Below are positions 31,386-63,131 of a DNA stretch of 64,000 nt, in pieces. Origin of the DNA: Verrucomicrobiaceae bacterium UBA7681 (lineage in GTDB: Bacteria > Verrucomicrobiota > Verrucomicrobiia > Verrucomicrobiales > Verrucomicrobiaceae); assembly GCA_002482965.1 (NCBI GenBank), contig DLGZ01000025.1:16777-80776 (forward strand), read 5' to 3'. The notes beneath the pieces are model-generated. The model saw only the letters and a program-made list of their open reading frames with translations, searched no databases and had not been told where the DNA came from. A program made the translations under genes and the position numbers. How positions within the stretch are numbered: position 1 is the first letter of the stretch; each line of letters starts with the position of its first letter.

Positions 31386-31441
31386 GCACGTAATGAAATA
31401 GTTGGGATTGGTCTTTCCATGACGGCAGGATGCACCGCACA

Positions 31442-31560
31442 TATGATCAGACAGGTTGTGGTAGAGTGATCAGTCTGAGTGATCTGCATTCTTTGGAACA
31501 AGACCAAAGTGATCCTTAGAACAACTCTTGGCCTATGTCTTAGCCGCTAAGAATTTAGTC
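31442..31560 (-). promoter_or_regulatory. AT-rich putative promoter/operator region upstream of the 4755-aa gene
   Basis: Marked GC drop versus the flanks. Four TGATC motifs (GATC at 31445, 31468, 31481, 31511), three of them as AGTGATC. Perfect 15-bp palindrome TCTTAGC-C-GCTAAGA at 31538-31552. Nearby TTAGTCT/TTAGACT direct repeats. Confidence 0.45.
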
Positions 31561-31784
31561 TTTATGTTTAGACTTCTAATTTCTTTACTTTCCCCACTGA
31601 CTCATCATTCATCGCTGATTTTTTCAATCCGATGAAGGCACGCAACCACCCACGGTACGTCCCATTGACCCGAGCACAATGTTGCCTGTGCCCCCTTAAA
31701 GACAGGTGGCCACTATTTAGGCTGCGTCTGCAAAACGCCTTACTGTGCCTGCCGCAGTTTCAGGAGGCGCTGAGAGGAGGCCGT

Positions 31785-34700
31785 TCAGCGAACTGACCGG
31801 CGGCGGCGAACCATCAGTCCGAAAAGCCCCAGCATCAGGAAGAGCAAACGAGAGGGCTCCGGAACGACGACGATGATGCCATTGCTGGCAAAGAGATCGG
31901 AATTGAAAGACAGGCCGTCGCCAAGCACAATGCCGCCGTAGTCGAAGGTGGTTGATACAGGCATGGAGCCAGTGGCAGTCCAGTCGATGAGTTTGAAAAC
32001 ATCTCCATAAGCCGGAATGTAACCGTAAAGGAAAACAGAGTCTATTTTGAGGGTGCCGTCGATGACGGGAACTGCAGTTCCATTCACCATGATGTTGTCG
32101 TGCAGGGTGGTTCCGACGACATAATTGCTCCATGCGGAGGGCACACTGCCCACCAGCCCGGTGAGATTGCCATTGCTGCCCATCTGTGCCTGCACTGTCG
32201 AGGCGTCATTGGTGGTGGCACCACCGAGCTGCATCAGCAGAGTGCCGCCTGCACTGACGGTGAAATTACCACCGACGGTGAGCTGGCCCTCTGCCGCAAT
32301 GCCTGGAGCAATCGTGCTGCCAGCATGCACATTCAGGTCTCCACCCAACACGCCGGTGCCGCCCAGAATGCCATTGTTGACCTCCGTAGATCCGGTGTTG
32401 GTATTGACCGCCGTAAACAACAGGGTGCCGGCACCTTCCTTGGTGAGGGTCCCTTCGCCGGTGACGACACTGCTGACAGTCGCCGTGGTGCTGGCGGCTG
32501 TTTCAATGGTGCCACCTGAGGCTCCAACGGTGATGCCACGATTGCTGTTTTGAATGGCGAGGGTCGCGGTGGTCAACAGCGTTCCGCCATTCAGTGTGAG
32601 CTGGTCTGCGGTGGCTGCGCCTGGATTTGCACCGAGGTTTGATTCACTTGAAATGGAGAGCTTGCCCGCGCTGATGACGGTCTTGCCGGTGTAGGTGTTC
32701 GTGCCCGCAAGAACCAGCGTGCCGCCCGTAGTCTTGGTGAGGGTGCCGCCACCATTAAGCTCGCCGAGATTTTTCAAAGTGCCTGCGGCGGCCACAAAGG
32801 TGACGTTTTGTGCAGCGGAACCGATGTTGCTGCCGGTCATGTCGAGAGTTCCGCCATCGAGGTTCACTGTGGCAGAGGAGGTGCCAGCCCCGAGGGCTCG
32901 GACGATGTTGCCGTTTACCGTGGTGGTGCCGCCGGTCAGATTGAGGCTGGCAGTGGCTGTCGTGTTGGTAGCGGCGCTGGCCATTGTGATCGCGGTGCCA
33001 GCAGTCGCTCCAATGGAAACCGTACCGCCTGTGACATTGATGGTGGCAACAGCCTGGTTGGTTGCGGTGGCAGCCTGTCCCATCTGCAGAATGCCGCTGC
33101 CAATGGTCACCGTGCCGCCACCCAGATTGAGGGTGCTGCTGACCAGAGGGACGCCAGCCAGCGGCGTGCCCGTTTTGACGGACATCGTGAGGCTGGTCAT
33201 GTCGAGAGTGCCCGTGTCAAAGGAGAAGACGTTGGTCAGGGTGTCTCCACGAGTGGACTGCGTGCCGATGGCAACCGCACCGAACAGCAGGTCTGCATTG
33301 TGGCCTGTGACGTCGAAGGTGTTCTGCACACCCGTGGCGGTGGCCACACCCGTCCCGCCGCCGATGGCGCCCATGTTGAACGCCACACGGCTGACGCCGT
33401 CTGCGGCCCGCACGATGATGGTGCCGGAACCTGAATTGAAGGTGACGGATCCGAAGTCGCGCGTGCCGGTGCCGATGTTGAACACATCTGCATTGATGGC
33501 GTTGGTGCCAGAGCCGAGCTTGAGCTGATTGACCTGTCCCACGGAGCCTCCGTACTGACCACCGTCACCGACGGCAAAGGTCTTGGCTGTGATGGTGTTG
33601 TCGGTGGCCAATGTCAGCACCGAGTAGGCATTGGCGGTGTTGGCCGTGGAGTTGTTGCTGACCCTGAATGTGCCAGTGCTGGCATTCAAGAGGATGCTCA
33701 AGCTGCTCAAGCTGCTGAAATCAGCCGTCGCCAGATTGCCCTGACCGCTGGTTGTACCAACGTAGCCACCCACTGTGAAGAACCCGTTGGCAGTGGTATT
33801 GTTCACGGTCACGGTGCCACTGCCGCTGGTCGTGAAATTGGTGGTGGTGAGTGTGGCATTGCTGGAGCCAATGGTGACGTTGCCATTGATCGTCAGTGTC
33901 CGGCCGGAAGCTGTGAGAAGCTGGTTGGCCGTGACATTGTCGCTGGAGACTGAGAAATTGCCCACCGTCTGATTGAAGCCGGAGATATCCAGAGTGGCCG
34001 CAGCACCACCCGTAGCCAGGGTACCCAGCACAAACGCATTCGCGACCGGCAGCGTGTTGGTCGCTCCAATGACGAGAGTGCCTGCACCCGCCGTGGTGGT
34101 GCCGGTGTAGGTGCTGACGCCAGAGGCCGCACTGATGGTGGTGGTATTGGTGTTCGTGATCGTCAGGTTATTGGCGGTGGTGCCATTGCCGTTGGCGATG
34201 GCTCCGGTGATGGCGGTGGCTCCGGTGCCGGCAATCGTCAGCGTGCGTGCATTGGCGGTTTCCGGATTGATGTCGACGCTGGTGAAGGTCAGAGTTTTGC
34301 CAGCACCGATGTTGTTGGTGAGTGTTCTGGAGGCACCCGTCGAACCAGTGAGTTTGCCGTTGAAGGTCAGGTTCTCAGTGCCTGAGACCGTCACGGCGGT
34401 GAGCGTGATGGCATTGGCGATGCTGCGCGAAGCATTGAGCGCCTGAACGGTGCCTGCGGTGAAGGTGAGGAGGCCGCTGGCCAGGCCGCCGTTCGAGTTG
34501 CTGTTGAACTGGAGCATGCCGGTGGTCAGCGTGGTAGCTCCGGCGGAGCTGTTGCTGCCGGAAAACACGAGCGTGCCGGCGGCCGCATTCATTGTGGTGG
34601 TGCCGGTGTAAGTGTTGGCACCGCCAAGGGTGGTGATTCCCGTGTTGGTGATGGTGAGAGTACCTGCAAGACCAGAACCGTTGAAGTCGGCAATGTTGCC

Positions 34701-37700
34701 GCTCACGGTGGTGTTGCCGCTGCCGGCGATGGTCTGAGTGCCGGCTGTTCCCGAAACGTCAGAGAGGAACACATTGCCACCCAGAGTGAGCAGGTTGCCG
34801 CCAGTGATGCTGCTGGTCAAAGTTCTGGAGCCACTGACGAAGGTGAAGCTGCCATTCATGGTCAGACTTTGGGAACCGGAAACCGTGACCGCCGTCATCA
34901 ACACATTGCTGGTGATCGAGCGTGCGGCATTGAGCGCCTGCAATGTACCCGCCGTGAGTGTGAGAGTGCCGCTGCCAAGACCACTGCCGCCACCCAGGGC
35001 GGAACTGCTGTTGAACTGGATGGTGCCAGTGGTCAGCGTGGTGGCTCCGGCGCTGCTGTTGCTTCCGGAGAGCACCAGGAAGCCCGCAGCCGCGTTCATG
35101 GTAGTGAGGCCGGAATAAGTGTTCGCCCCGCTGAGAGTGGTGGTGCTGGTGTTGGTGATGATGAGCGCACCCGCAACGCCAGAGCCATTGAAGTTGGCGA
35201 TGTTGCCGCTGAGGGTGGTGAGTCCCGAACCCGCGATGGTCGCCGCACCTGCGACGGTGGCGGAGTCAGAGAGAAACACATTGCCGCCCAGGGTAAGCAG
35301 GTTGCCACCGGTGATGCTGCTGGTCAGCGTGCGGGCGCCGCTGACGAATGTGAAGTTGCCGTTGATGGTCAGACTCTGGGAACCTGAAACCGTGACAGCG
35401 GTCAACGTTACGGCGTTGGAGAGGGTGCGTGCGGCATTGATGGCCTGCAGAACGCCTGCCGTGAGAGTCAGTGTGCCGCTGGCAATGCCGCCGTTGGTCG
35501 CGCCCCCAAGCTGGATCGTACCGGCGGTCAAAGTTGTGCCGCCAGCGCCGCTGTTGCTGCCGTTGAAAATGATCGTGCCGCCGGAGGTGGTCTGGGAAGT
35601 GAGGCCGCCATAATTGTTGGCCCCGTTGAGTGTGAGGATGCCAGTGCCGGTGTAGTTGAGGCCGCTGGTCGTCGAGGTGCCGCCGTTGGTCACGGCACCA
35701 TTGATGATGATGTTGGCCACGTTGCCGGTGAGAACATCAACGCGATTTGCGGCATTGTTGCTGAGGGCATAGCTGCCGATGACCAAGCTGCTGCCGGCTC
35801 CGGCGGTAACCGTGATGGTGTTGACGGCGTTGGCCGTGTTGGTCAGGGCACCCAGAGACAGCATCCTGTTGGTGCCGCCCATGGTGATCGTCAAAGCTGA
35901 AGCACCCACATTGACCGCACCCGAACCGAAGTTGAGGTCGTTGCTGCCCGTGAAGATGAAGCTGCCGCCCAGAGTCATGTTGTTGTTCTGGACGAGAGTC
36001 AGGGCGGAACCGGTGACATTGTCGATGGTGCCGCCGCTGATGATGATGGTACCACCGGCGAGACCGCCGTTGTTGGCACTGGAGTTGTTCAAGAGCAGCG
36101 TGCCTGCCGTCAGCGTGGTGCCGCCGGTGGAGCTGCTGTTGGTGCCGGAGGTTTTGAGTGTGCCGGCGGCATTGTTCATCACCGTCAAACCACTGTAGCT
36201 GTTGTCGCCATTGAGTTCGAGGATCCCGGAGCCCACCTGTTGCAATCCACCGCTGCCGGAGACCGTGGCACCGAAGGTGACGTTGTCACTGCGATTGAAG
36301 GAGAGCGTGCCATTGTCAGTGATGGTGCTGCCATTGCTGAGACTGCCGGTGGTGCCGCCATTGCCAAGCTGGAGAGTGGCGCCCGAGTTGATCTGGGTGG
36401 CGCCAGAGTAGGTGTTCGCATTGGTCAATGTCGTGGTGCCGGAGGCGATGGTCAGCCCCGTCTTGAAGGTGCCTGAGCCCAACGCATCCTGAATGAGACC
36501 GCCGAAGGTCGAGGTGCCGTTGATGGTCAGGAATCCATCGCCCGTGGTGCTGCTGTTGCCAATGATCTGACTGCCTGCGACCGCGCCAGCTCCCTCGGCG
36601 AGTGAGCTGACGGTTTGACTGAAACCGTTGAGATCCAGCACACCGTTAGAACCGGTCGTTCCCAGTGAGATGGCTCCGGTGCCAAGCGCACCGTCAGCCC
36701 CCAGCATGATGGTGCCATTGAGCACGATGACACCCCCCGTGAAGGTGTTGGTGCTGGCCAGAACCAACGTGCCGCCACCGGTGACAACCACGGAAATGTT
36801 GCGTGAAGCACCGTTGCTGATGAGACCACCGAAAGTGCTCGATGTCGCGCTGCTGTAGGTCAGGACTGAATTGCTGGTGGCGCTGTTGTTGGTGATCGTC
36901 TGGTCCGAAGCCGTACCTGCGGTGGCCAAAGCGCTTACCGTGAGGTTGAATCCATTCAAGTCCAGGATGCCACTGGTGCCGCTGGCGCCAACGAGAACTG
37001 CGGAGCCCGTGGGAACTGCCGTGGCGCTACCGAGGGCCAGGACACCCTGTGCGACGGTGACACCGCCGCCGTAGGTGTTGGTTCCCGAGAGGGTTTTAAC
37101 CGCAGTGGGCGAGGACATGTTGATGAGCACCGAACCGGTGCCGCTGATATTTCCGGCAAAGGTCGAACTGTCGGAACGGTTGAAAGCCAGGACGCCATTA
37201 TCCAGAATGTCACCTGTGATGGAACCGGTGGTGCCACCATTGCCGATCTGCAGGGTGCCGCCGGTGATGGTCGTGGAGGAACCGGAACCGAAGTTGTTGG
37301 TGCCGGTGAGGATGGTGAAGCCTGCGATGTTTTCGAGCGTGCCAGAACCGGTGATGCTGCCGGACACGACCAGGCCGGTGCTGGTGGTGTTGAAGGTCAG
37401 CGCACCATTGTTAAGGATGTCCCCGGAGATGGAGCCGCCCGCACCGCCATTGCCCACGTTCAGTGTGTTGGCAGCGTCAATCGTGGTGCCACCCGTGCTG
37501 TCGAGAGTGCCTGTCAGAGTGAGTGCGCCGCCGCCGGTGACCAGCGTGGTGCCGGAGCCGGTGATGTTTCCGGTGTAGCTGTAAGCGTTGCTGCGATTGA
37601 AGACGAGTGCGGCATTGTTCGTAATACCGCCCGTGCCCACAATGGAACCCGTGGTGGAGCCATCACCGATGAGCAGTGTACCGCCACTGATGGTGGTGAG

Positions 37701-49700: not shown

Positions 49701-52700
49701 ACCGCTGGCACCTACGTTCAAGTTGCCGCCGGTGGAAGCATTGATGAACGTGGCCACACCGCCCTGCAGGGTGCCGGAGTTCACATAGGTGGCCCCCGTG
49801 TAGGTGGCTGCCGCGGTGATTGAGAGCGTGCCGGTGTTGTTCAAAGTGAGCCCGCCTGCGCCTGAGATGACTCCGTTAATCGTCAGGGTGGTGGCTGGCG
49901 CGATGTCGAGCATCGCATTGCCGCCGGTGAGCGAATATGTGTGCGTGCCGGTGCTAAAAGTGGCGGTGGTTTGAAGCGTCGCCCCATCGGTGAGATTGAT
50001 GGCGCTGGTGAGGGTGTTACCGAGCTGATTGTTGTTGCTGATGCTGAGAATCCCCGCATCAACAAATGTCGCGCCTGTGTAGGTGTTAACGCCGGAAAGG
50101 ACCAGCCTGCCAGTGCCCGCCTTGGTCAGCGTGGAAGCGCCGGTGCCGTCCGCAATGATGGCGCTGATGGTGAGGGTGCCCGCACCATACTGGTGAATGA
50201 TGAGGTCGGAGTTGGTGGCGACACCGCTTTTAAGCGAACCGGTGGTGCTGCTGATGAGGTAGCCGTTCGCCCCAGTATAGAGCAAGCCGCCAGTAGTGAT
50301 GGTGAGAACGTTGCCGGCGAGCGCCAGTGTGCCACCTGCCGCGACGTCTGTGATTTTCAGGGTGTTGACGGCCTCACTGGCGGTGATGCCTCCGACCAAC
50401 GTGCCCGTCTGCAAGTAGTTGATGGTCGAGGTGGAGCCCGAGGCCACCAGATTGGTGTAGCTGCCGAGACCGGTGGTCACGGAGCCCGCGCCGGAATTCG
50501 TGGCCCAGTTGAAGCCGCCCGCCGTGCCATCTGAAAAAACGATGCGGCCAGCACCCAGAAGGCCGGTGGCATCTGCTGCTGTCGCAAAAGTCACGGATGT
50601 GTTGGTTGGCGCGGTGATGAGCATCGCGCCACCTGCCGCAGTCGTGGTCAGTGCGCCGGTCACATTCAGCAAAGTGCTGCCGCCGCCACCGCCGTCCACC
50701 AAGGTGATCTGTCCGCCGCGAACACCGAGGGTGAACGCATTCAGCGTTTGCGTCACCGCAGCCCCGCTGCGGCCTGTCACATTGAGCGAGCCGCCTTGCA
50801 GAGTGAGGGTGGCAACCTGGTTCATGATGTTGCCGGTCACCGAACCGGCGGAATAGTCGAGCTTGATGGTGCCGGCGTTCAGTGTCCAAGCCCCCGTCGC
50901 CGTGCCTGCGGCAGAGGTGAGAGTCAGTGTGCCGCCGCCGGTTTTCGTCAGGGTCAAACTCGCCGGGGTGGTCGAATTGAAAACGCCACTGAAGGTCGTA
51001 TCGAAATTGCCGGCGAAATTGCCGAGAGTCAGGGCAACTGCAGTGGCATTTGTGTTGGTGACCACGCCCGAGCCGGTGAACTGGCCTACCGTGACCGCAA
51101 CAGCATTGAGGTCGAGCGTGCCGTTCACAGTCAAGGCCGTGGCCGCAGGAAGGAAGGCTGCAATGCCGCCTTTCAGCGTACCGCCGGAATTGATCGTCGT
51201 GGAACCCGCAAAGGTATTGGCGGCGCTGAGGGTCAAAGTGCCGGTGCCCGTTTTGACGAGAGAGCCAGTGCTGTAAATCAAACCGGCAAAGGTGGTGTCA
51301 GTGTTGTCGCTGCCCACCGTCAGGGTTGCCCCCCTGAGGCTGACAATACCGGCCGTGGCGCTACCACCTGAAAGTGAGCCAAGGGAATTGTCAAAACCAG
51401 CCAGGTCCAGAACTACCCCGGCAGTCGTGGCCAATGACACCGCCGAGTTCGGACCGAAGGCCGACGTCGTACCCGCGCGGAGAACCCCGCCATTCACCTT
51501 GGTGGCACCGGTGTAATTGTTCACACCATTGAAGGTCAGAACACCGTTTGACGATTTGGTGAGGCCGCCGCTGCCGGAGATCACGCTGTTGATCCGCAAA
51601 TCCGAGGTCACCGTGTAAATAATGGCCTCCTGCGCGCCGAACGCCAGATTGCTGACGGAAATGCCGGTGTATCCATTCCCTGCAAGCGACAGAATAGCAC
51701 CGCTGTTGAGTGTGAGTGTCCCGGAACCGGACACGCTGCCGCCTGAGTTAAGACGCAGTGAATTGATCTTCGTCCCGGCGCTGTCGAGCCCGGAAACGAG
51801 GCTGCTCAAGCTGACGTTGTCCAGAAAGGTCGCTGCATCAGCGATTGAGCCGGCATATTCCGCCGAGGTCAGATTGCGCAGGCCGCCGGCAAGCATGGAC
51901 CCGTTGATCTTGTCGGTCATGAACCCGTATTGGGCACTGCCACTTAGCGCCGTGTCCTGCCCGAGGACAAAGGAATTGATGCTGATCGAGGTCGAGCCGG
52001 CGAGGCCGGTGCCGCCAATCGCATCAGCCCCCGCACCATTGGCGGTCACAATGAGGTTGGTGTTGTTTGCCCCGGCGGCGGCACCGAGGTTGGCCCCGGT
52101 CAGGAGCAGCGTGGCACCCGCAGCGCGGGTGAGGCTGGAGACTGTGACGGAAGTAGCTCCCGTCGTATTCGCCGTCAGATTGATGATGCTGTTGCCCCCG
52201 GAGTTCAGCGCCAGAGTTCCAACCGCATCCGTGCTGGCGCCTGTGCCGCTGATGTAATTGAACGTACCGTTGGTAAGCGTCAGGTTCTGTGAGTTCAGGC
52301 GGTTCAGCTTGATGCCTCCAGCTGCCGTGGTGTTGTCCACCGTGAGTGTGGCACCAGGATTGATTGCGATTGAGGAATTGTTGATTGCGCCATCAGCCCC
52401 TGCGATTTTGAGAATGCCAGTGTTGACGTTGGTGTTACCGGAGTAGGTGTTGCTGCCTGCGAGAATCCAGGTGCCAGTGCCCGCCTTGGTCAGCGAGATG
52501 ACCGCACTGGTGCCATCACCGATGACGCCAGCGAATGTGTTGCTGCCGGTATTGGCCCCCTGCAGCGTGAAGGTCTTCGCGCCCGCGCCGCTGACCATCA
52601 GATCGGTGTTGACGGTGATGGTATTGGCAGCCGAGGCGTTTGAATTGTCAATCGTCGCCGTACCACCGGTGCCCATCAAATCGAACTGGCGGTTGTTCAA

Positions 52701-54629
52701 GACGAGCGCGGAAATGGCGGCGGTGCTCCATTGAAAGATGCCATTGCCGGTGGTGGCCTGAAGACGAATCGCGCCATTGGCCGAAGCAGAATCCGCCAAA
52801 CTGGCGATGACACCCGTCACCGAGTTCGACGTGAAGCCGATGACCAACACCCCTTGGAAATCATTGGCCGTGTTGGAGAGGGTGACCCCATGTGTGCCTG
52901 AGGTCGTCTCAATGATGATACCGCCGGTGCCGGTGACCTTGCCGGCGATGACAAGGTCAAAGGCGGCTTCGGTGAACTTCGCAATCGCCCCGTTGTTGAT
53001 CGTGATGGTGCGTGCGGCATTGAGCGTGAGGCTGGCAGTGATCTGCAGAGTGCCGCTGCTGTTGAAGGTGAGGCCTCCCGTCAAGGCCCCGAGATTGGTG
53101 TCTGCGCCGATGCTGATCGCAGCAGTCGTGGCAGCGCCAATGGCCGGCCGCGCTGCAGCGTCGATCACGGTGCCACCGCTGTAGCTGTTTGAGGTTGAGC
53201 TGAGAGTCAGTGCGCCAGCCGAACCCGTCTTCACCAAGGTCACAGCGCCACCGTTGTCGCTGATCGGCGCACTGATGGTGATGCCGGCACTGCCGGTGTT
53301 AACATAAAGGTTGCCGCCGCCGGTCGGAGTTGTCAGCACACCGCCTGTTCCGGTTGCCACCGTCAAGAGCGTCGCCACACCATTGAGCAGCCCGTAGGTT
53401 TGCAGATTTGCCCCTGCTGCCAGCGTGAGAGTGGAAGTGGCTCCTGTGTTCAGCAGGGCCGCAATGGTGCGAGTGGTGGCCAGCGTCTGTGAAGCGGAAC
53501 TGGTGTAGGCATTGCTTGCATTGGTCCAAGTCGATTCCAACGATCCGGCAATGCCCGCACCCACGACCTGTGAAGAGGCATTGTAAACGGCGTAGTCGGT
53601 CTGCAGCGCGGCCGTGGTCCCCACGGTAGCCCAAGGGCCGATAATCTGGCCGGCAGTGGTGGCGGTGGCACCCGTGACAACAATCATGTTTTTGGTCGTG
53701 TTCAATCCCGACGCAGAAGAAAAGGTGATCGCGGAAGTGTTGGTGGCACCGGTACGGGTCAGGCCGGAAAGGGTCAGGGTCTGACTGCCAGCGCCTGCCT
53801 GATTGGTGGTTTCGACAAGATTCAACTGCCCGCTGGTCAGCGCCACCGTGCCGAGTGTTTCAGCGTAAACAGCGGTGCCTGAAGTGTTGGTGAAGGTGAT
53901 CGTGCCGCCGTTGGAGGTGATGCCGGCACCATTGGCAACACGATTGAGCAAAGCCTCAGTAGAGGACGTATTCGTCAGGGTGATCCCGCCACCGTTGAGC
54001 GTGATGCCGGTGGTGGCAGCCAATGCCAGATTGCTGGCGGCCAGGGCCATGGTCATCCCGTTGTTGATCGTGGTGGTGCCTGACCAGCCAGTGCCGTTCT
54101 GCGTCCCGTTAAAGGTAAGCGTCCCTGCGGTCTGACCTCCATAAATGCCCCCGCTAAGTGTCACATTGCTAGATGCAACACTCGACACCCCGCTGGTGAT
54201 CGTGGCGGCGGCGATGTTGTTCAGTGTGATCAGATTATTCGCCGCACCAAAGGTCAGCGTTTTGCTGTTTGTGGTTCCATTAATCGTGTATGCCGTCGTA
54301 TTGAACATCAAGCCGCCAACGGTCACGTTGTCTGTGAGTGTCACCGTTCCGGCCGCGCCCCTAAATACCGCCGTGTCATTGTTCTCATTGACCCAGGAAG
54401 TGTCGCTCGTTCCGTTAAACCAGTTTTGCAGCGGAGTGCCTGAGAGTGAATTATTCCAATTCCCCGCCCCACCTAAACCTGCTCCTGTGCCGACATTGTT
54501 GTTCGCTGCATTTGTATCAGTGTCCCAATAAAGAGTCGCTGCCTGCAACGGCTGCCCCACCTGCCACGAAAGCATCAGCACGAACATCAGTGTGCCCAAG
54601 GAACGGCGAAAAGCGCGTAAGTAACTCAT
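31785..54629 (-). CDS. giant (7614 aa) secreted autotransporter-associated beta-strand repeat protein with PEP-CTERM sorting signal
   Basis: Uninterrupted 22,845-nt ORF with ATG at 54629. Signal peptide MSYLRAFRRSLGTLMFVLMLSWQVGQPLQA, then an ATLYWDTD..NW..NW head box. Very many G.G.L.L.G.NTY(T/S)G.T.(I/V)..G.L units and ADQL.(L/F)NGG..NRG(I/V)T motifs. C-terminus VPEPSRLLFLMLGLFGLMVRRRRSVR. No beta-barrel domain. Confidence 0.95.
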   Translation of the reverse strand: MSYLRAFRRSLGTLMFVLMLSWQVGQPLQAATLYWDTDTNAANNNVGTGAGLGGAGNWNNSLSGTPLQNWFNGTSDTSWVNENNDTAVFRGAAGTVTLTDNVTVGGLMFNTTAYTINGTTNSKTLTFGAANNLITLNNIAAATITSGVSSVASSNVTLSGGIYGGQTAGTLTFNGTQNGTGWSGTTTINNGMTMALAASNLALAATTGITLNGGGITLTNTSSTEALLNRVANGAGITSNGGTITFTNTSGTAVYAETLGTVALTSGQLNLVETTNQAGAGSQTLTLSGLTRTGATNTSAITFSSASGLNTTKNMIVVTGATATTAGQIIGPWATVGTTAALQTDYAVYNASSQVVGAGIAGSLESTWTNASNAYTSSASQTLATTRTIAALLNTGATSTLTLAAGANLQTYGLLNGVATLLTVATGTGGVLTTPTGGGNLYVNTGSAGITISAPISDNGGAVTLVKTGSAGALTLSSTSNSYSGGTVIDAAARPAIGAATTAAISIGADTNLGALTGGLTFNSSGTLQITASLTLNAARTITINNGAIAKFTEAAFDLVIAGKVTGTGGIIIETTSGTHGVTLSNTANDFQGVLVIGFTSNSVTGVIASLADSASANGAIRLQATTGNGIFQWSTAAISALVLNNRQFDLMGTGGTATIDNSNASAANTITVNTDLMVSGAGAKTFTLQGANTGSNTFAGVIGDGTSAVISLTKAGTGTWILAGSNTYSGNTNVNTGILKIAGADGAINNSSIAINPGATLTVDNTTAAGGIKLNRLNSQNLTLTNGTFNYISGTGASTDAVGTLALNSGGNSIINLTANTTGATSVTVSSLTRAAGATLLLTGANLGAAAGANNTNLIVTANGAGADAIGGTGLAGSTSISINSFVLGQDTALSGSAQYGFMTDKINGSMLAGGLRNLTSAEYAGSIADAATFLDNVSLSSLVSGLDSAGTKINSLRLNSGGSVSGSGTLTLNSGAILSLAGNGYTGISVSNLAFGAQEAIIYTVTSDLRINSVISGSGGLTKSSNGVLTFNGVNNYTGATKVNGGVLRAGTTSAFGPNSAVSLATTAGVVLDLAGFDNSLGSLSGGSATAGIVSLRGATLTVGSDNTDTTFAGLIYSTGSLVKTGTGTLTLSAANTFAGSTTINSGGTLKGGIAAFLPAATALTVNGTLDLNAVAVTVGQFTGSGVVTNTNATAVALTLGNFAGNFDTTFSGVFNSTTPASLTLTKTGGGTLTLTSAAGTATGAWTLNAGTIKLDYSAGSVTGNIMNQVATLTLQGGSLNVTGRSGAAVTQTLNAFTLGVRGGQITLVDGGGGGSTLLNVTGALTTTAAGGAMLITAPTNTSVTFATAADATGLLGAGRIVFSDGTAGGFNWATNSGAGSVTTGLGSYTNLVASGSTSTINYLQTGTLVGGITASEAVNTLKITDVAAGGTLALAGNVLTITTGGLLYTGANGYLISSTTGSLKSGVATNSDLIIHQYGAGTLTISAIIADGTGASTLTKAGTGRLVLSGVNTYTGATFVDAGILSISNNNQLGNTLTSAINLTDGATLQTTATFSTGTHTYSLTGGNAMLDIAPATTLTINGVISGAGGLTLNNTGTLSITAAATYTGATYVNSGTLQGGVATFINASTGGNLNVGASGLVEMNNFTLTVGGIAGSGNIKNSGGTAAALTVGGNNQSTVYSGVLQATGTAANLNFIKNGTGTLTLNASNLYTGTTTVNNGTIQWGVDNALTSTTVVTLGNAAGPIVAMLDLNGHSQTLAGPTLYGTTSTATSQAIINIGAGGNLTLAGTLTATVNATAANGFLGAFINGGTLTMTAARTFAIADSINAAADLTITSAITGAAGGITKTGAGNLVLAGVNTTTGANIIQVGTLTAGVNGALSTAGTWTVTATGAGVTATLDLSGTVQSLNNVLALGGSTATSTPVVNLNGGTLSILNGITYSASGNPLGGQIIGGTLDLGSATRTITVGNSTNAAVDLAISSVISGAGGVTVAGVGQLLLSGQSTYAGNTTLSAAGIVQAGVNNALPFGDGKGNLIINAGTFDLNGFNINLNAVTAAAAGGTIDNTSSSSTTLTIGNNDTTGTFYAGVIANSGAGALNLTKTGTGAASFTGAVGIKGALTVNAGTLNLLGTLTTPGSMTGVTVAGGGTLNMISSSVAALSNLTTLNLGSGSGTATLGLTLGATASTLTTNNSATTANTVLINLSAISGIASGTYTLLSASSGLSGATYQISAVGGFATTAQSISDTAVSVTLGAATATTLYWKGGVDNSWNTLNGSFQSNWTDVTGTVNSQAMPGFANTAIFSANGQSGTSIATTLGMNVILNDLQFNSALGSGPVGSISIAAGANAANTLTIAPSSSSTGITVLTGAPASISISAPVNLGAAQTWTVADADTVLTVSGVISGAAGNSLSKAGAGTLILSSAGNLFGGAATTVNVQAGTLQFSADAQLGSSLNTLTIGTSTSVGTLQYTGSTATIARAIALGTQAGSATGDTISVGSGTILTLSGVISGGAASGVVGNNSLTITGGGTVVLSASNTFTGDVIVAGNSTLSVNTIVTTLNLGTAALNQKPKQVFIQSGSTYVATASQNPVAFTSANSVFYSFGQNSSSSTTVSVASGATFQFDDAGQFTLNGTLNLTGAGTLLLGGNYDVLTAAYGSSTLTTGVQSGSSINVGGTATLQLQANAAALGGTNKASITLNDGTTLDLRLNTGGIFGNDVTIAGDVTLKSGRTTAAATNITLTMGDLTVGGGTVTFANGNLNTAPGVANLTFTSTTLTSDVIFNLTNVNGSGIATLNLGGLDDGGTARTITTTGGGALGINAASTSFTGTINVTGGSYLVLGAAGANTGTVNVLNGSVVYTATGANAAGTVNVGDTSGSNAATLAIGANGVVVDNAFVIRDGSSGATNITTVSTATVAVPNLLGFGMPVGGMGTIAAPITLAKSSGAVNFGAAANTSLVITGAVGESGGAKTFNAVGPGTVYLLGDKNFTGGISITGGALILGAGPTSTNFSGTTTINGGLLGLLGSYALPGALVIGSSGGSLLYAPAAATTDYSSLLTLTSGGTLILDIASGLTINYTTAFGSSSTAGLSKVGAGTLNLTPTTDSETFTGATTVGAGTLALNFVSGGATSNLISSSSILQMQGGTLTVNGGTNTSAVTQAFASTSLQAGNSVVTLTKGSASSVGLTLGTISRSAGAAINFSLLPASTSINIAGNSNNAAGILGGWATYNTSATLTDWAINSGNLVAPYASYTTLTTSGGGTQTTTNFTMGASVTLTAAGGASVTANSLRMSATSTLALAGTNSLTLSSVTGGILYALSSGTGTISGTAALATGLGMVSTGTASGGELLVYVNAGGTLTISAGVGGIAGSTNGFGITKSGGGTLNLTNATTSNLNNYTGQTVINGGVLQALAPDRLGSTSGITLNGGTLFSGSTTLSGSITQAITLGLSGGTLSYNSTTGTGSGNGGWNNTTAIAFLGSGSRTLTLQGTDTDRIATLVAALGDGGGPTFLIVNGGTTTSGFQLSGANSYSGSTTIQGGYLILNNVSALPGMSSLTFSGTGFNLAELELTATYGTTFTRSLGTGPGQVQWLGNGGFSAGAGTATATSVTVNLGGAGDMVTWGAGGFVPSGSILGLNQNALNNPSLGSVNFQNGIDFGALTTRTIEVGNSSYGFNTASIAASNAGYDAQLSGNLISTVTGGFTKTGTGVLWLNGDNSGFLGTLNIANGTVLFSNAAALPATLTLSSTISLTAGAVGGVVLQGATNFNTLYSHINSSTNGELMLDTSSSESINFNAAGFTNARFGAFGNVAYTGLFTPGTSGTYLINGVSGNLVASAAGQNRLMLSRTNALTGASSTLNVGTGILLLGGANDIGGAVNIQSVPLVGTNSISGAAFVWIANDKALGTGTITLTNTITAANQAGYPGLGAAYGDHTLANNIVLNDAGGASGNNFFLGGDTASDGVPSAGRMTYSGTVTIQGPTTITNNLQFNQRTTGLMFTGQITSTGSSPNFYFNGGSSLIVFNNLSGTASNYTTSNIFLNSAATFLIGQASDLGDTATARGVSYNSNGAVFGILPTAGNVTTSSNITFVANGNSFAQVVDVPMATQTFTLTSGIVQTSARTGQLYTKTGLGTFDIGVGLNPNSGASTWGTAGITIAQGTLSANFTTSAVASNMIRLANSSATAAPLTLSGGTLLLTGKSSTANSQAFGALTVTQGASAITLNSNGGTLTTSFTSMATRAAGGTVALTLPTAGPASVAVTAGLVAQNSLLVDAAATKSAFMVTGTQGGAITGWAGVSGGTIVALSNYTLTTSSTLSGNATVDTGVNTTLVANAAADSLRFNLAESRTLNLGGNTLNVGGILVTAAVGGNGSTITGGSLSTASGAAANADLVVYQANTAGALTIGANIVDNGANAVALTKSGAGELVLTGSNTFSGSLFLNEGKVTFNSVSQMGAGGSAINLNGAVLHYTGSGDISNAGTLTNGSVNVARHTSIDVDSGATLTLSGTVTSTLLSPTYELLTKTGAGTLVLGGSSNNVLYVNVAQGTLILNKSGGNVNALGISSTIVLSNIGLTVEDGALAQLGGDTANGDQILNASSVQLNGSGMLDLAGHSETIDGLGGSSSSVITNSSASGAVLTVGNSSMTLGASTQFDGSLQDGTGTLGLTMIGGNIFTLTGINTYTGKTTIIGQQYLTSGIYFGGISISSELNLGNNPANFTADQWTLNGGRLVMTENVTLDAARNNVGITLATGGGIFEVASSKTFTIAAANIIAGTGRFTKEGAGTVVMLGGANTYTGKTVLNLGILSISAQGALGGNPASATADQLTFNGGQLVTTATLSLNDANRGVTIQGYGGTLTPALGTTLTLPNTLSGTGDLTLNGAGTVVLGGINTPWTGKTILLGGELQISTNLNLGSPPATAVADQLQISNNAIFHLTADMAFNANRGVTIGSGGATITTDAGKLVSVNGAVALNAGTLTKAGTGGLVLLGSNSAVSGTQVAVMAGVLRLASSGALSSNSNLNLSGGVVELASSDFTRALGAGNNQVQFTASSGFSAFGAARNVNLGGAAATVVWNSGSFVPTGSALVLSSTTSDNTVTFQNGIDTNGAVRTVQVDDGSADTDAVLSGAVSDSSSGGGILKTAAGTLSLTGSSTYSGTTQISGGRLLAGAANVFSSASAFTLDNTSGVSLDLNGNNQVIGSLAGGGTTGGNVSLGAGVLTTGGNNGTTVFDGVISGTSGGLTKTGSGSMSLTNAQTYTGATTVSGGALFVNSTLATSGITVGGGSTLGGSGSVSALTTVSSGGTILAGDVAGDGSLTMSGGLTFLGGGTINVGQIAETASNVLNVGALTVGSVAGSITINVIANSPSGYANSTPYTLLTYTGGSILGTAGFSGFTLGTIAGTNSRTSGLLSDTGSAITLTLTADNPKWTGFDVTSGLVSSRWAPIDAALLNWKLISAGTSTSYLEGDVVLFDDSAIGSTTVDISEGNVSPSSVTFNNSSLTYTLTGSNGIAGTANLNKFGTGTLIINNTNSFNGGVILNGGVIQLGSAGALGTTNGLLFGANVAAGTKLQLNSNSITLAGLNTNATPGSAVVENGGASAATLTLNLQTVGGPPSGDASSVFAGVLQDGSSGKLGLTLTGNGTLTLSGANSYTGLTTISGGTLLIGDGSTTGSIVGTGGITNNAALVFNRSNAYSYTGNITGSGTTLVTGGGALTLTGTLDSTGGTTIDAANTLNVGNGGAGGSISGDILNNGALTFNTTSTGLVVSGSITGSGTLENIAGFTILTGTNNFGSGSSTTITGGTLQIGNGGTTGSITGDILDNGVLAFNRSDSSTFAGNISGTGSVLINMSSPTAVKTLSGTNTYGGGVTVAQGVLALGSATAVPTGSAVLVGASGTSGILDLNGFNLTVSALATAGTASDQTITNNSATSNSVLTYSSATSSTFGGLISNGASRNISVVVTGGGTLVLASTNTFTGGVIVLNGTIMLGADGALGTGAISLGTTGSNGVLDLNGFSQTVSSLAEGAGAVAGSQIIGNSSTTGDGFLTINGTSTFGGLIQDALGSGTFKTGLTIASGTTTLTNANTYSGATQINSGATLQLGNGGTTGSLSNGSTITDNGTLSFNRSDNVTFGATVSGSGGLQQVGSGILELNGDNSYSGLTVMNNAAGTLKTSGTNSSSTGGTTLTAGTLLLNNSSANNGGLAGGTIIISGGTIDNVTGSALTLVQNNNMTLGGSFIFTGSNDLNFGSGAVNVGASALTITMGGTNRMLSLGALTNTANAVNTITVTAGAGSSLVIGSYALSNNAANRVDVLTGNVANIIINGAVTNGGTSTTSGLNYTGTGILTLNGANNYGGLTSQTTSGGTIIFNGSNSGAGGTTLTAGTIQLGGATNGGIASGTLTLTAGVLQAINAARTLSNAVTLTAVTVSGSQSLTINGNFTFVSGARTLTSSITGGNLLTLGGNVFLSDSATVAGAATIAGSGLTTLSGNIANFNGSGVAGALIITNTSTTTLSGANTYSGLTTMNAAAGFLVLSGSNSSAGATTLTTGTIQFNSSSALGGGSGLGSGTLTLTAGTLQALNAARSITSNVLMTAVTVSGSQSLTMNGSFTFVSGSRTLTSSITGGNLLTLGGNVFLSDVSGTAGTQTIAGSGNTTVSGNIADFNGSGLAGTLTITNTGITTLGGANTYTGTTTMNAAAGTLVFSGSNSSAGATTLTTGMLQFNSNSNGGLASGLLTFTAGTVQALNASRSIANAITLTAVTVSGTENLTFNGKLTGSTGASRTLTNNIGAGKTLTFTSVDINPETANARTLTIAGTGATAITGAIANGNGTTANNLTITNTNTTTISAASGVSTYTGTTTAGAGTLVIGATNTLPVANAFVLGTLATGGAAATLDISGFNQTVGNFSVSSDNVTANQLLTASGRTLTINGNVTIGSSNATLTTTNFTTSGSGTVTVNNTTANGFFTVGGYVGTTSGQGNLATADFSSLSSLSILLNASTGTFRVSNNSTANTANAYSVLTLATDNTITAKTFAVGDGGQYGGSVGQVNQLKLGSGTNAINADVFNIGTGTRDFGSVTFNSGSGTIIVRAADGVSRVAFNMGAIGGGTGVATATGVQNTFDVTGHNADLLFGAVAIGTQSTRGDTLTNVFSFDTGTLDMTSLTMSVKTGTPLAGVPLVSSTLNLGGGTVTIGSGILQMGQAATATNQAVATINVTGGTVSIGATAGTAITMASAATNTTATASLNLTGGTTTVNGNIVRALGAGTSSATVNLDGGTLDMTGSNIGSAAQNVTFVAAAGTLKNLGELNGGGTLTKTTGGTLVLAGTNTYTGKTVISAGKLSISSESNLGANPGAATADQLTLNGGTLLTTATLAIQNSNRGITVGASGGTIETAASTTATVSSVVTGEGTLTKEGAGTLLFTAVNTNTGSTEVNNGILGGTGVLGGDLNVHAGSTIAPGIAAEGQLTVGGNFTVSAGGTLLMQLGGATTNDASTVQAQMGSNGNLTGLVGSVPSAWSNYVVGTTLHDNIMVNGTAVPVIDGTLKIDSVFLYGYIPAYGDVFKLIDWTATGSMPVSTTFDYGGIVLGDGLSFNSDLFASNGIIVVVPEPSRLLFLMLGLFGLMVRRRRSVR
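31788..31865 (-). other. PEP-CTERM sorting signal of the 7614-aa protein
   Basis: GTT CCG GAG CCC TCT (VPEPS) read on the minus strand at 31851-31865, followed by a hydrophobic helix and RRRR. Confidence 0.9.
32760..33840 (-). repeat. C-terminal module shared with the 4755-aa paralogue (copy 2; boundaries approximate)
   Basis: Same collinear motif series as 18270-19430. DNA identity is roughly 70% by eye in the aligned stretch around 33261-33520 versus 18853-19110. Confidence 0.8.
33950..35480 (-). repeat. in-frame tandem repeat, about 507 bp (169 aa) x3, inside the 7614-aa gene (boundaries approximate)
   Basis: AGAGAGGAACACATTGCC at 34761 recurs as AGAGAGAAACACATTGCC at 35268, an offset of 507 = 3 x 169. 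Protein units: LTLTAG.LQA.NAAR....V..TAVTVSGSQSLT.NG.FTFVSG.RTLTSSITGGNLLTLGGNVFLSD.... The third copy is more diverged, and weaker copies extend toward about 36200. Confidence 0.85.
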
Positions 54630-54854
54630 ATTGAAATTTGATTGGCAAATTTCGATGTTAAGGGATTTGGAAGATCACAAGCAAGCAATTGTGCAGGGGT
54701 AATGCTAAAGATTTTGTCACCTTGATCCACCACCTAAGGGCATTCATTATTTAAAGATTAAACTTAACACCTCATTGGGCTTCAATCTCTGAGCTGCAGC
54801 GGCCTCATCGGAGTTTGGCAAGATCTGTCTTTTCCCGGCGTTTCCCCCGGCCGC
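54630..54854. promoter_or_regulatory. AT-rich divergent promoter region (7614-aa gene to the left, sulfatase operon to the right)
   Basis: 225-bp gap between divergent ATGs (54629 and 54855) with a clear GC drop. Contains TTAAAGATTAAACTTAA and three GATC sites (54673, 54724, 54822). No Shine-Dalgarno-like purine run before the giant gene's ATG. Confidence 0.5.
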
Positions 54855-56372
<1,518 letters not shown>

Positions 56373-56409
56373 GGAGTCTGCGCCGTCATTTCTCAGTCAC
56401 CCAATTTTT

Positions 56410-57882: not shown

Positions 57883-58463
57883 AATCTGTTCTGTTTCTAT
57901 TTTTCGTCGCCGCTGCACTGGCTGCCGATGCACCGCTGCTTAAGGACGACTTTTCCGCGCCCAAGCTGGCGACACGCCGCGCCTCACGGGGTGAGTGGAA
58001 ATTTGCCGACAACAGCGCCACCTGCACGCAGGACGATGAGCTGTACAAGAAGAACAAGGACCATGGGCCAATTCTCTTTTACGATCTCGTTTATACCGAC
58101 GCGGCGATTCGTTTTGCGGTGAAACCGGATGCTGCGAACAAGGCGGTCGTTTTTACGACCAACAGCGCGGAGGGGCATGTCTTCCGCCTGGTTTTCAGTC
58201 AGGCTGGCATGGGTGTGCGGGCTTTCCCGCCGGAGGAGAAGGACCACAAGTCGATCTCACTTGGCAATGAAAAGGCGGCGAAACTGAAGGTGGGGGAGTG
58301 GACGAATGTCAGCGTGGAGCTGCGGGGGACGAAGGCCACGGTGAAGGTGGGTGAGTTTGCGAAGACGTATGAGCATGCTTCCATTGCACGCGAGAAAGCG
58401 AATCTCAGTGTTGGCTTCAGCTATGGGAAAGTGGGCGTGAAGGAGCTGATGGTGGAAAAATAG
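57879..58463 (+). CDS. small secreted protein of unknown function (possibly a jelly-roll/DUF1080-like fold), translationally coupled to the sulfatase
   Basis: The ATG at 57879 overlaps the sulfatase stop (ATGA, 57879-57882). Signal peptide MKSVLFLFFVAAALAADA. 194 aa. Fold assignment is a guess based on its alternating beta-strand-like pattern. Confidence 0.7.
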   Translation: MKSVLFLFFVAAALAADAPLLKDDFSAPKLATRRASRGEWKFADNSATCTQDDELYKKNKDHGPILFYDLVYTDAAIRFAVKPDAANKAVVFTTNSAEGHVFRLVFSQAGMGVRAFPPEEKDHKSISLGNEKAAKLKVGEWTNVSVELRGTKATVKVGEFAKTYEHASIAREKANLSVGFSYGKVGVKELMVEK

Positions 58464-58585
58464 ATTCACCGACCGAAGACTGACAGGTCAAGAATCGTCA
58501 TCTGCGTTTCTGGTGTTTTTTGAAACGCGGCGGCGGTTTTTGTGTGTCGGATTCGGCAATCCTGCATGTTGTTTGCAGGAGCGTT

Positions 58586-59050: not shown

Positions 59051-59089
59051 GAGGTTGGCCTACGGAAGGGGAAATTCGACTTGCCGGAC

Positions 59090-60779: not shown

Positions 60780-60904
60780 GGCACGGAAGATGCGCGTTCC
60801 TATTGAAGGAGCAAGCTAACAAATGAGGGGGATGAAATCCGTTCATGCAGGCAGCGCAGTGCGGGCTTGACCGGGCTGTCACAAGCCTTCAGCATCTTGG
60901 CACC

Positions 60905-63110: not shown

Positions 63111-63131
63111 TTAGGCGTATCCCATTTTCAT

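Follow-up and report, generated by a model that had tools for sequence, protein, structure and literature searches.

The question raised by this locus is whether a single open reading frame of 22,845 bp (gene A) is a functional gene and, if so, what kind of protein it encodes and how that protein is exported. Gene A begins with ATG and encodes a product of ~737 kDa. We consider it probable (about three chances in four) that gene A is both intact and functional and codes for a giant fibrous β-helical PATR/TIGR02601 protein (protein A) that serves as a PEP-CTERM/exosortase substrate. For this protein, we infer a Sec route, exosortase processing, a surface location, and an adhesive or matrix function. 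The features discussed below are listed in Table 1; the window is the whole 64-kb stretch of DNA that was analyzed.

Table 1. Features of gene A, gene B, and the adjoining intergenic regions (positions in the window; aa, residues of protein A unless stated otherwise).
Feature	Position	Strand	Basis or remark
Gene A, 7614 codons plus stop codon at 31785-31787	31785..54629	minus	ORF listing, translation
Signal peptide of A, aa 1-30, followed by ATLYWD	54540..54629	minus	sequence inspection
Conserved N-terminal domain of A, aa ~31-500 (~470 aa), family-wide	53130..54539	minus	alignments A1, A2
PATR/TIGR02601 repeat body of A, aa 167-7420	32370..54131	minus	Pfam, TIGR02601, iterated HMM
Internal duplication in A, ~168-aa unit, three to four copies, aa ~6150-6820	34170..36182	minus	chunked self-BLAST
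C-terminal pre-anchor region of A, aa 7421-7588	31866..32369	minus	alignment A3, AlphaFold
PEP-CTERM sorting signal of A, aa 7589-7614	31788..31865	minus	TIGR02595, AlphaFold helix
A-B intergenic spacer, 342 bp	31443..31784		GC 0.48 vs. ~0.60
Gene B, 4774 aa as longest ORF	17118..31442	minus	ORF listing, HMM scans
PEP-CTERM tail of gene B, VPEPSRILLLMLGLFSFLRRRRTVS	17121-17195	minus	TIGR02595
Divergent intergenic region, 225 bp, GC 0.44	54630..54854		between A and sulfatase gene 54855-56372(+)

By inspection, the signal peptide of protein A consists of a basic n-region, a hydrophobic core, and an AxA-like cleavage site; it contains no Cys and is thus not a lipoprotein signal. AlphaFold placed a helix at aa 8-24, within the signal peptide, and the same layout was common to the orthologs/paralogs P0133, P0163, and P0217. 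Tat export, suggested by the motif FRRSLG, was rejected: no TAT-signal model matched at E ≤ 0.01, and a folded 0.7-MDa cargo is implausible. In the N-terminal domain, W35, W58, W70, and W79 were nearly invariant, and the motifs GQIIGPWATVGT and QTDYAVYN were found. The alignment of this domain (A1) comprised 61 sequences; like the family alignment A2, it was so diverse that no patterns could be extracted. With a 175-aa query from the conserved N-terminal part (aa 226-400), 20 genomic loci were found.

The repeat body was recognized by PF12951 (E = 1e-36 and 4e-28; scores of 124.9 and 97.6 bits, cutoff 27) and by TIGR02601 (E = 4e-41 and 6e-33; scores of 138.3 and 112.3 bits, cutoff 19.85), the latter in at least 21 stretches. 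About 60 recognizable PATR units of ~30 residues were identified, often ~100 aa apart. Repeat motifs had previously been described as consistent and in frame throughout; the units from aa 167 to 7420 were indeed in frame, but they were irregular, made up ~5-22% of the residues of protein A, and formed no regular tandem array. An HMM trained on gene B alone detected 30 PATR units in protein A, compared with approximately none in 20 composition-matched shuffles. A hand-written PATR regular expression found two units, and iterated HMMs were used instead. The composition of the repeat body was uniform and rich in T/G/A/S/L/N, and neither the composition profile nor domain scans detected a linker or foreign domain in it. 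Further, the PATR-poor stretch at aa 3800-4500 matched other PATR proteins exclusively.

The internal repeat copies shared a median identity of 34%, and the PATR repeats appear to be old. No tandem arrays were found in gene A at the DNA level, where Tandem Repeats Finder returned trivial near-duplications of 15-27 bp. Neighboring copies of the ~168-aa unit were 62-68% identical, with HMM unit spacings of 6413/6584 and 6486/6655, and this repeat would be the sole relatively young internal duplication in the protein. The pre-anchor region that follows the repeat body was β-rich in the AlphaFold model, with one helical insert at aa ~7476-7492, and was kept in gene B and many family members with the motif F.L.DW (alignment A3).

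The C-terminus of protein A is composed of VPEPSR, LLFLMLGLFGLMV, and RRRRSVR, which corresponds to the tripartite PEP-CTERM signal as defined here by a Pro-Glu-Pro motif, a hydrophobic helix of ~14-20 residues, and a basic cluster at the extreme C-terminus. TIGR02595 scored 17.4 bits in A and 20.4 bits in B, against a cutoff of 16. PF07589 scored 18.5-18.9 bits on A, under its cutoff of 20.7; this model misses the Verrucomicrobium spinosum set (Haft 2006). In the AlphaFold model of aa 7015-7614, a terminal helix was located at model residues 578-599. Protein B ends in VPEPSR-ILLLMLGLFSFL-RRRRTVS, and the window alone holds two PEP-CTERM proteins, A and B.

PEP-CTERM was first found in V. spinosum, with 65 copies and two EpsH. 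According to the literature, every species in which PEP-CTERM proteins occur possesses an exosortase, which is usually encoded remotely and stands in a many-to-one relation to its substrates (PMC3237569, PMC1569441). The sequence-only reading of this DNA had considered export of such a polypeptide puzzling without a dedicated TPS or T1SS partner in the neighborhood. It had missed the C-terminal PEP-CTERM segment, which scored above the TIGR02595 cutoff and whose exosortase is normally encoded elsewhere. Exosortase-associated export had itself stood among the checks named there. Since the signal peptide and the PEP-CTERM segment point to the Sec/exosortase route, export of A is not left unexplained, and the sequence points to assignment of A to the Sec and exosortase sorting pathway. 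The remainder of the puzzle is the outer-membrane step, which is common to PEP-CTERM proteins and whose route has been described as "currently unclear" (PMC12188702). With ~737 kDa and a Sec signal and PEP-CTERM as its only recognizable export determinants, protein A sharpens this question for exosortase substrates in general.

The genes encoded around A and B were searched for export functions. Within the 64-kb window, no genes for T1SS, TpsB, a β-barrel, or an exosortase were identified, nor were Omp85/POTRA, ABC exporter, MFP, or TolC genes. Exosortase candidates were sought in the window and the related loci among ORFs ≥200 aa long for which five or more TM segments were predicted; the four retrieved proved to be an MFS transporter, an ABC-2 permease, a TPR protein, and a 7TM-HD receptor. 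Nor did an exosortase gene turn up in a further 3.2 kb of upstream sequence or in the regions flanking the 20 related loci. The sole ABC protein of the window (661-2574) was a soluble ABC-F protein with two ABC_tran, Xtn, and CTD domains, and the ORF at 49-555 showed a sub-threshold TPR-type match to PrsT (19 bits versus 312). An exosortase is assumed to be present in the source genome, because the literature rule is that every PEP-CTERM species has one.

Gene B, located 342 bp downstream of A, has the same architecture as A, yet the two are ~25% identical; TIGR02601 matched B with E = 3e-58. The likely true start of B is the ATG at 31385, giving MKATRKLFSVPAWCGLFVFTLLLCQLESAKA|AAFYWD, and the N-termini of A and B both resemble signal peptides. 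Scans of the A-B spacer revealed no sigma-70, sigma-54, or terminator consensus. The divergent region upstream of A is presumed to be its promoter region, and no consensus promoter was detected within it. Terminator-like and sigma-54-like matches were all within coding sequence and were discarded, the sigma-54 ones reflecting composition. No tRNA or Rfam matches were found in the window.

AlphaFold models were obtained for aa 1-1200 and aa 7015-7614, which together represent 24% of protein A. The N-terminal model was all-β with a pLDDT of 83 (mostly >90 over aa 80-740), and the N-terminal domain in it consisted of β-strand-rich rungs. The C-terminal model was also all-β (pLDDT 91, pTM 0.88). 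In the models, the strand pattern repeated every ~21-27 residues (DSSP periodicity). A continuous β-helix had been supposed for the entire protein; the modeled 24% was all-β and passenger-like, but aa 872-915 of the N-terminal model form a break of low confidence, with a helix following at aa 922-932.

The closest PDB matches of the models were the autotransporter-passenger β-helices of Ag43, pertactin, Ssp, EspC, and Hbp. In Foldseek, Ag43 matched with E = 2e-3 (probability 0.91) and Ssp locally with a probability of 1.00; no match had an E value at or below 1e-3. The best match of the 1200-aa model (E = 0.048) was not significant, as would be expected when a long, bent solenoid is superposed globally, and just the kind of fold in the top matches was used. 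At the sequence level, aa 712-882 matched the solved IcsA passenger (E = 3e-6); a PDB sequence match to macrophage migration inhibitory factor (E = 0.0028) was judged spurious. Extrapolated from the modeled 24%, with solenoid geometry and length both derived from the DSSP periodicity alone, the contour length of A would be ~107-165 nm at 22-34 residues per rung. This falls inside the range of 0.1-0.2 μm proposed earlier, which is reasonable, though only as an extrapolation, because the best structural matches are autotransporter-passenger β-helices.

Based on the sequence and the models, the following pathway is proposed. The signal peptide would direct export of the unfolded A chain through Sec, and the PEP-CTERM helix, predicted by motif and by AlphaFold, would together with the RRRR cluster hold the protein in the inner membrane. 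According to the literature model, a remotely encoded exosortase would then cut at or near PEP and transfer the protein to an exopolysaccharide- or envelope-linked acceptor. The repeat body would form a long, segmented, right-handed β-helix with a contour of ~0.1-0.16 μm, and the protein may serve as an adhesin or matrix fiber located on the outer membrane or outside it. It may also be glycosylated; Thr, Ser, and Asn make up 35% of its residues. Gene B would encode another substrate of this type, the product of an ancient divergence. Genes A and B fill 58% of the window, a large outlay on biosynthesis that speaks for an important surface or matrix role in these environmental bacteria.

If A and B are surface-located, the exosortase pathway might feed an undescribed outer-membrane route for β-solenoids of 7,600 residues, possibly coupled to polysaccharide export; we regard this extension as doubtful. 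If it were true, such a route might be found with the help of A and B as extreme natural substrates. Proteobacteria export like repeats via their own β-barrel (type V); here the repeats are fused to PEP-CTERM in proteins of up to ~0.74 MDa.

An unlikely alternative is that A stays in the envelope, with PEP-CTERM acting as an inner-membrane anchor or allowing periplasmic release, and serves as a periplasmic or prostheca scaffold. A folded rod of ~0.7 MDa would be hard to pass through known outer-membrane channels, and such retention would be in line with the undefined outer-membrane route of PEP-CTERM proteins and with the lack of a translocator gene nearby. However, the typical periplasmic width is far below the estimated contour of ~100-160 nm. 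Also pointing outward, the closest structural and sequence relatives of A are extracellular autotransporter passengers, and relatives with the same repeats carry the PF03797 barrel, which exports repeats to the surface. Moreover, loss of the exosortase in Nostoc depleted PEP-CTERM proteins from the exoproteome.

Far less probable is the possibility that gene A is decaying, unexpressed, or an assembly artifact, produced by NNC-rich, stop-poor codons or by repeat mis-assembly. The antisense frame of A contained just 89 stops in 22.8 kb, which is unusually low and indicates that the composition suppresses stops to some degree, and both A and B were singletons at 90% identity, A having no relative above 90%. 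Nevertheless, the sense frame contained no internal stop, compared with 89-609 stops in each of the five other frames of 31785..54629. At a per-codon stop probability of 0.0296 derived from the coding-strand composition, the probability of 7614 codons without a stop is ~10^-99.5. The claims of a single uninterrupted frame and of a stop-free length beyond chance were thus both borne out. Gene A looks like native coding sequence, because its GC3 (0.73 versus 0.69-0.81 in neighboring genes) and its synonymous codon preferences match those of its neighbors. The architecture is complete from the signal peptide through the sorting signal.

With respect to mis-assembly, the internal repeats are too diverged at the protein level, and DNA tandem arrays are lacking. 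Contigs from SRR5322583 and SRR845265 were 100% identical to the window over 34.3 and 28.7 kb, respectively, an identity that takes in the 3' 9.7 kb of gene A, and the gene tables of both assemblies listed the same 7614-aa product. SRR28552074 contained a strain with 99.2% identity over a 3.5-kb contig. The exact 7614-aa protein was also present, unnamed, in a public collection (NCBI and Logan). P0121 (6762 aa), an ortholog of A, was 75% identical over 4570 colinear residues. A comparison with L003 gave 58% protein identity with saturated synonymous sites. A pseudogene, the outcome that the sequence-only reading had named as refuting its view, is unlikely in light of the P0121 colinearity and the two independent assemblies that agree base for base where they cover the gene, and the explanation by decay or artifact is largely refuted.

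Relatives of A were found in large numbers, and those with lengths of 4000-7600 aa were common. The N-terminal 1200 aa gave 544 matches at E ≤ 1e-10, mostly from Verrucomicrobiota (proteins up to ~1.7 times the query length), which were named [quoted passage not shown] and whose consensus ended in PEPxT..LLxRRR. In an exhaustive search with the C-terminal 1200 aa, 6290 representative proteins matched at E ≤ 1e-3. Among the best 150 of these, 50 were of at least 4000 aa, 36 of which had a PEP-CTERM-like tail, and protein A was the longest (7614 versus a maximum of 7596 aa, that of P0134). Complete family members in genomes were mostly just 900-2300 aa. P0133 (6479 aa) had a signal peptide and tail similar to those of A, and just the two ends aligned, with 47-52% identity; P0147 (5865 aa) and gene B shared 62% identity along 2291 aa. 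No relatives of the central 1000 aa of A were found in genome and metagenome scans.

Gene A belongs to the giant genes (>5 kb), and to their subclass above 20 kb, in the convention of Reva & Tummler (2008) as cited in PMC5177795. Its placement among the largest bacterial genes was overstated, since none of the 7,478 longest BV-BRC proteins analyzed is shorter than 10,624 aa, and the record stands at 85,804 aa (bioRxiv 10.1101/2023.11.21.568195). Protein A is large but otherwise ordinary within a common family of giant, probably β-helical repeat proteins in Verrucomicrobiota, a phylum in which genes of the giant PATR/PEP-CTERM type are numerous and already automatically annotated. Gene A on its own adds little; its value is that of a clean, extreme example. 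No experimental work on giant PATR/PEP-CTERM proteins was found in the searchable literature.

Least credible of all is a classical adhesin (type Va, TpsA, or type 1 secreted RTX) with partner genes elsewhere: PATR repeats typically occur in the passengers of autotransporters, the JGI name for relatives is "fibronectin-binding autotransporter adhesin", and A weakly matches ShdA, but membership in all three classes is refuted by the absence from A and B of the PF03797 barrel (E ≤ 0.01; detected by the same scan in the relatives P0123, E = 5e-25, and P0149, E = 2e-57), by the absence from A of a TPS domain (PF05860) and of RTX repeats (each at E ≤ 0.01), by an N-terminal signal peptide that T1SS substrates lack, and by a window with a soluble ABC-F as its sole ABC protein and none of TpsB/Omp85, ABC exporter, MFP, or TolC.

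Among known systems, the T1SS adhesins LapA, SiiE, and MpIBP and the PVC giant genes above 20 kb resemble A in size class and in a presumed surface or adhesive role. In contrast to A, LapA, SiiE, and MpIBP are built of Ig-like/BIg/RTX modules, have no signal peptide, and are encoded adjacent to T1SS genes. The type Va passengers (Ag43, pertactin, IcsA, Hbp, EspC, and Ssp) share PF12951/TIGR02601 repeats with A, and their right-handed β-helix is its best structural match. They are generally adhesins or self-association factors. Unlike type Va autotransporters, A carries PEP-CTERM in place of the 12-stranded C-terminal barrel (PF03797), is 7-15 times longer than their passengers, and originates from an environmental Verrucomicrobiaceae-like bacterium rather than from proteobacterial pathogens.

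[quoted passage not shown] These substrates are much smaller than the 7614-aa protein A and have little domain content. Studied PEP-CTERM/exosortase substrates have been proposed to connect exopolysaccharide with the cell surface (PMC12188702, PMC9850573, PMC1569441). The giant PATR/PEP-CTERM proteins of Verrucomicrobiota share with A the signal peptide, the YWD...W...W motif, scattered PATR units, and the VPEPSR..RRRR tail. By swapping a type V β-barrel and a PEP-CTERM tag on one repeat scaffold, the family offers a natural experiment on the export of β-helical passengers.

The single uninterrupted ORF of 7614 codons that the sequence-only reading had proposed was borne out with exact coordinates on the minus strand (gene A, encoding a protein of ~737 kDa; see table). 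From its coding-strand composition (A.206, C.328, G.276, T.190), a stop is expected with p=0.0296 per random codon, and a stop-free run of this length therefore has P ~10^-99.5. The remaining five frames contained 89-609 stops, and GC3 (0.73) and synonymous codon choice were like those of neighbouring housekeeping genes. An antisense frame (31785..54629, plus strand) held just 89 stops in 22.8 kb, and many shadow ORFs of 150-321 aa were found antisense to A (e.g., 43323..44288); these arise from the NNC-rich sense codons and are not genes. The identical 7614-aa product was already present in public protein collections (NCBI, Logan) and was a singleton at 90% identity.

Features of genes A and B and of the four-gene block in the window (aa, residues of the A protein)
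Feature	Position	Strand	Remarks
Gene A ORF	31785..54629	-	ATG start, 7614 sense codons, one terminal stop
A, conserved N-terminal domain	residues ~31-500		common to the family; near-invariant W35/W58/W70/W79
A, PATR/TIGR02601 body	aa 167 to 7420		sole recognisable family there
A, ~168-aa unit, three to four copies	aa ~6150-6820; 34170..36182	-	62-68% identity
A, PEP-CTERM sorting signal	last 26 residues		VPEPSR-LLFLMLGLFGLMV-RRRRSVR
Gene B	17118..31442	-	4774 aa, ~473 kDa, 342 bp downstream of A
PSCyt1 + WD40 propeller	4612-5982	-	
PSCyt2/PSD1	5979-8174	-	
807-aa protein	8175-10598	-	weak PPC-domain match only
DUF1501	10604-12265	-	454 aa in public gene call, 553 aa as longest ORF

At 22.8 kb, A falls in the class of giant genes (>20 kb). 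Of 29 planctomycete genomes, 15 were reported to have genes of this size, and giant genes chiefly code for surface proteins or PKS/NRPS (PMC5177795). The proposal that it is among the largest bacterial genes does not hold: the longest BV-BRC proteins analysed in one study number 7,478 sequences, none shorter than 10,624 aa, and that study lists proteins of as many as 85,804 aa (bioRxiv 10.1101/2023.11.21.568195). A is large, yet outside that group.

Two Logan contigs, assembled independently from sequencing runs SRR5322583 (53 kb) and SRR845265 (47.6 kb), matched the window at 100% identity for 34.3 and 28.7 kb, respectively; the shared stretch takes in the 3' 9.7 kb of A, and the gene tables of both list the identical 7614-aa product. 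No DNA-level tandem arrays were found in A, which makes repeat-driven mis-assembly unlikely. In an exhaustive search of representative proteins, the relative P0121 (6762 aa, N-terminally truncated) showed 75% identity to A across 4570 colinear residues and 63% across the C-terminus. Another relative, P0133 (6479 aa), possessed a signal peptide and a PEP-CTERM tail like that of A, and only both ends aligned (47-52% identity). Thousands of codons kept open in a diverged ortholog argue for selection on the full-length product. The independent assemblies, for the 3' 9.7 kb of A, and P0121 thus both speak against a pseudogene, the case that the earlier reading had set against its own. In addition, a contig from a closely related strain (SRR28552074) matched 60443..64000 with 99.24% identity (25 mismatches in 3.5 kb); given longer contigs or reads, this strain pair would allow population-level pN/pS analysis of the giant genes.

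On sequence inspection, the N-terminus of the A protein was built like a Sec signal peptide, and the protein contains no Cys and is therefore no lipoprotein. The conserved N-terminal domain carries the motifs GQIIGPWATVGT and QTDYAVYN. Autotransporter-associated beta strand repeats (PATR) were matched by PF12951 (125 and 98 bits) and TIGR02601 (138 and 112 bits). Our own iterated HMM located ~60 units, and an HMM trained on B alone found 30 units in A versus ~0 in 20 shuffles of A. The in-frame repeat motifs described from the sequence were present from aa 167 to aa 7420, but their spacing was irregular (often ~100 aa) and only about 5-22% of residues lay in recognisable units. Outside the units, composition was uniform: in each 300-aa window, T+G+S+N+A made up 56-70%, hydrophobic residues 24-32% and Pro at most 2.7%. 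The longest PATR-poor stretch (aa 3800-4500) matched solely other PATR proteins. Internal repeat copies were old (median identity 34%), and the ~168-aa unit was the only comparatively recent internal expansion. The C-terminal signal scored 17.4 bits with the PEP-CTERM model TIGR02595 (cutoff 16) and 18.5-18.9 with PF07589, slightly under its cutoff of 20.7, which agrees with the remark of Haft et al. (2006) that PF07589 missed the PEP-CTERM set of Verrucomicrobium spinosum (PMC1569441).

Two structural models, covering 24% of the chain, were built with AlphaFold2 and family alignments (aa 1-1200, pLDDT 83.2, pTM 0.73; aa 7015-7614, pLDDT 91.1, pTM 0.88). Both consisted nearly entirely of short strands, and the single closing helix of the C-terminal model coincided with the PEP-CTERM hydrophobic segment. 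Strands were ~9 residues long with autocorrelation peaks at 21-24 residues and multiples, so that a rung of three strands would correspond to about 23-27 residues. Foldseek returned no PDB match at E<=1e-3; the top matches were nearly all right-handed beta-helices, chiefly autotransporter passengers, including Ag43 (E=2e-3, prob 0.91), Ssp (prob 1.00, rmsd 4.9 A, 248 columns), pertactin, EspC, Hbp, SepA, Hap, IgA1 protease and IcsA, and also VacA, EtpA and phage tailspikes. By sequence, aa 712-882 matched the solved IcsA passenger (E=3e-6). With 22-34 residues and 0.48 nm per rung and ~7,560 mature residues, a span of about 107-165 nm is plausible as an extrapolation from the modelled 24%, in agreement with the 0.1-0.2 micrometre suggested previously. 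The all-beta models and beta-helical matches favour the helix proposed in the same reading, but not its continuity: the N-terminal model was broken by long strands (aa 780-870), a low-confidence segment (aa 872-915) and a helix (aa 922-932), and the rod is probably segmented or bent.

The second giant gene, B, showed the same architecture of signal peptide, PATR repeats (TIGR02601, E=3e-58) and PEP-CTERM (20.4 bits), with only ~25% identity to A; together they occupy 58% of the window. The start at 31442, given by the longest ORF and by public pipelines, probably lies 19 codons upstream of the true one, which is likely ATG 31385 since a canonical signal peptide results from it. Other genes encoded an ABC-F ATPase, a 3-keto-disaccharide hydrolase, an SDR, an epimerase, two SPFH proteins, two sulfatases, an alanine-racemase-like protein, a lactonase, a transaldolase and HisF, whose cluster at >=90% identity includes proteins named from Verrucomicrobiaceae MAGs. 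Such a set of genes is usual in the Planctomycetota-Verrucomicrobiota group, as is the four-gene block (4612..12265, minus strand). Two tandem sulfatase genes and a weak 3-keto-disaccharide-hydrolase-like ORF (54855..58463, plus strand) are divergent from A, and a further sulfatase lies immediately upstream of the window; the sulfatase genes suggest a lifestyle of degrading sulfated polysaccharides. The longest ORFs at 12879..14898 overlapped mutually (12879-14060 and 13342-14898, plus; 12999-13871, minus); public gene calls and Pfam matches indicate a 290-aa NAD-binding dehydrogenase (12999-13871, minus) and a 331-aa epimerase (plus) ending at 14898. No tRNA or Rfam features were found in the window. 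On the plus strand, GC skew was above zero in 31 of the 32 segments of 2 kb, with frequent values of 0.15-0.29, regardless of gene strand, which explains the C-rich coding strand of the giant genes (C.328 versus G.276) and may reflect replication strand bias across 1..64000.

The flanks were searched for export genes, and none for T1SS, TpsB/Omp85, T2SS or exosortase were found in the window, an extra 3.2 kb upstream, or the flanks of 20 related loci. In the PEP-CTERM model, Sec export and C-terminal inner-membrane tethering are followed by exosortase recognition and cleavage, with possible transfer to an EPS-linked acceptor, and the protein ends in the surface or exopolysaccharide layer. Exosortase, which spans the membrane several times and has a Cys/Arg/His triad like that of sortases, serves many substrates per enzyme, whose genes are remote; the system was discovered in V. 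spinosum (65 copies, two EpsH genes), and exosortase deletion depleted PEP-CTERM proteins from the Nostoc exoproteome (PMC1569441, PMC3237569, PMC12188702). The A protein would, according to this model, leave the cytoplasm by the Sec route and be cleaved by exosortase; it may be glycosylated (Thr+Ser+Asn 35% of residues, 172 N-x-S/T sequons) and could serve an adhesive or matrix function. The lack of a TPS or T1SS partner, considered puzzling from the sequence, is largely answered, at the pathway level and short of the outer-membrane step, because A carries the overlooked PEP-CTERM tag and exosortase genes are remote from their substrates. Across the PEP-CTERM class, and above all for a protein of 737 kDa, that step is hard to envisage, and the main value of A is as a test substrate for this part of exosortase-dependent sorting.

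For the N-terminal 1200 aa of A, 544 homologs were recovered at E<=1e-10, annotated as 'autotransporter-associated beta strand repeat-containing protein' or as 'fibronectin-binding autotransporter adhesin'. Most came from Opitutaceae, Rariglobus, Luteolibacter, Chthoniobacter and Akkermansiaceae, and others from Planctomycetota and Lentisphaerae. The family tail had the consensus PEPxT...LLxRRR. Complete genomic homologs were mostly 900-2300 aa long with PEP-CTERM at the end; the closest (locus L003, 74% identical over the conserved stretch) extends past the edge of its locus and has no fewer than 3755 aa. With the C-terminal 1200 aa, the exhaustive search recovered 6290 representative proteins at E<=1e-3. 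Of the 150 best, 70 reached 3000 aa or more, 50 reached 4000, 24 reached 5000 and two reached 7000 (maximum 7596), all shorter than A; a PEP-CTERM-like tail was present in 87 of the 150, and in 36 of the 50 with at least 4000 aa. A is thus a new, extreme-sized protein of a known, widely annotated family, and no experimental work on its giant PATR/PEP-CTERM proteins was found in the literature.

Three giant relatives (P0123, P0124 and P0149; 5298-6576 aa) combined the same PATR repeats with aromatic autotransporter-type tails. The autotransporter beta-barrel PF03797 was found at the end of P0123 (E=5e-25) and P0149 (E=2e-57), whereas the same scan detected none in A or B, which carry PEP-CTERM there; such endings were a minority among the relatives of A. 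One repeat scaffold thus appears with two alternative C-terminal export modules, a swap of modules between the type V secretion and exosortase sorting systems.
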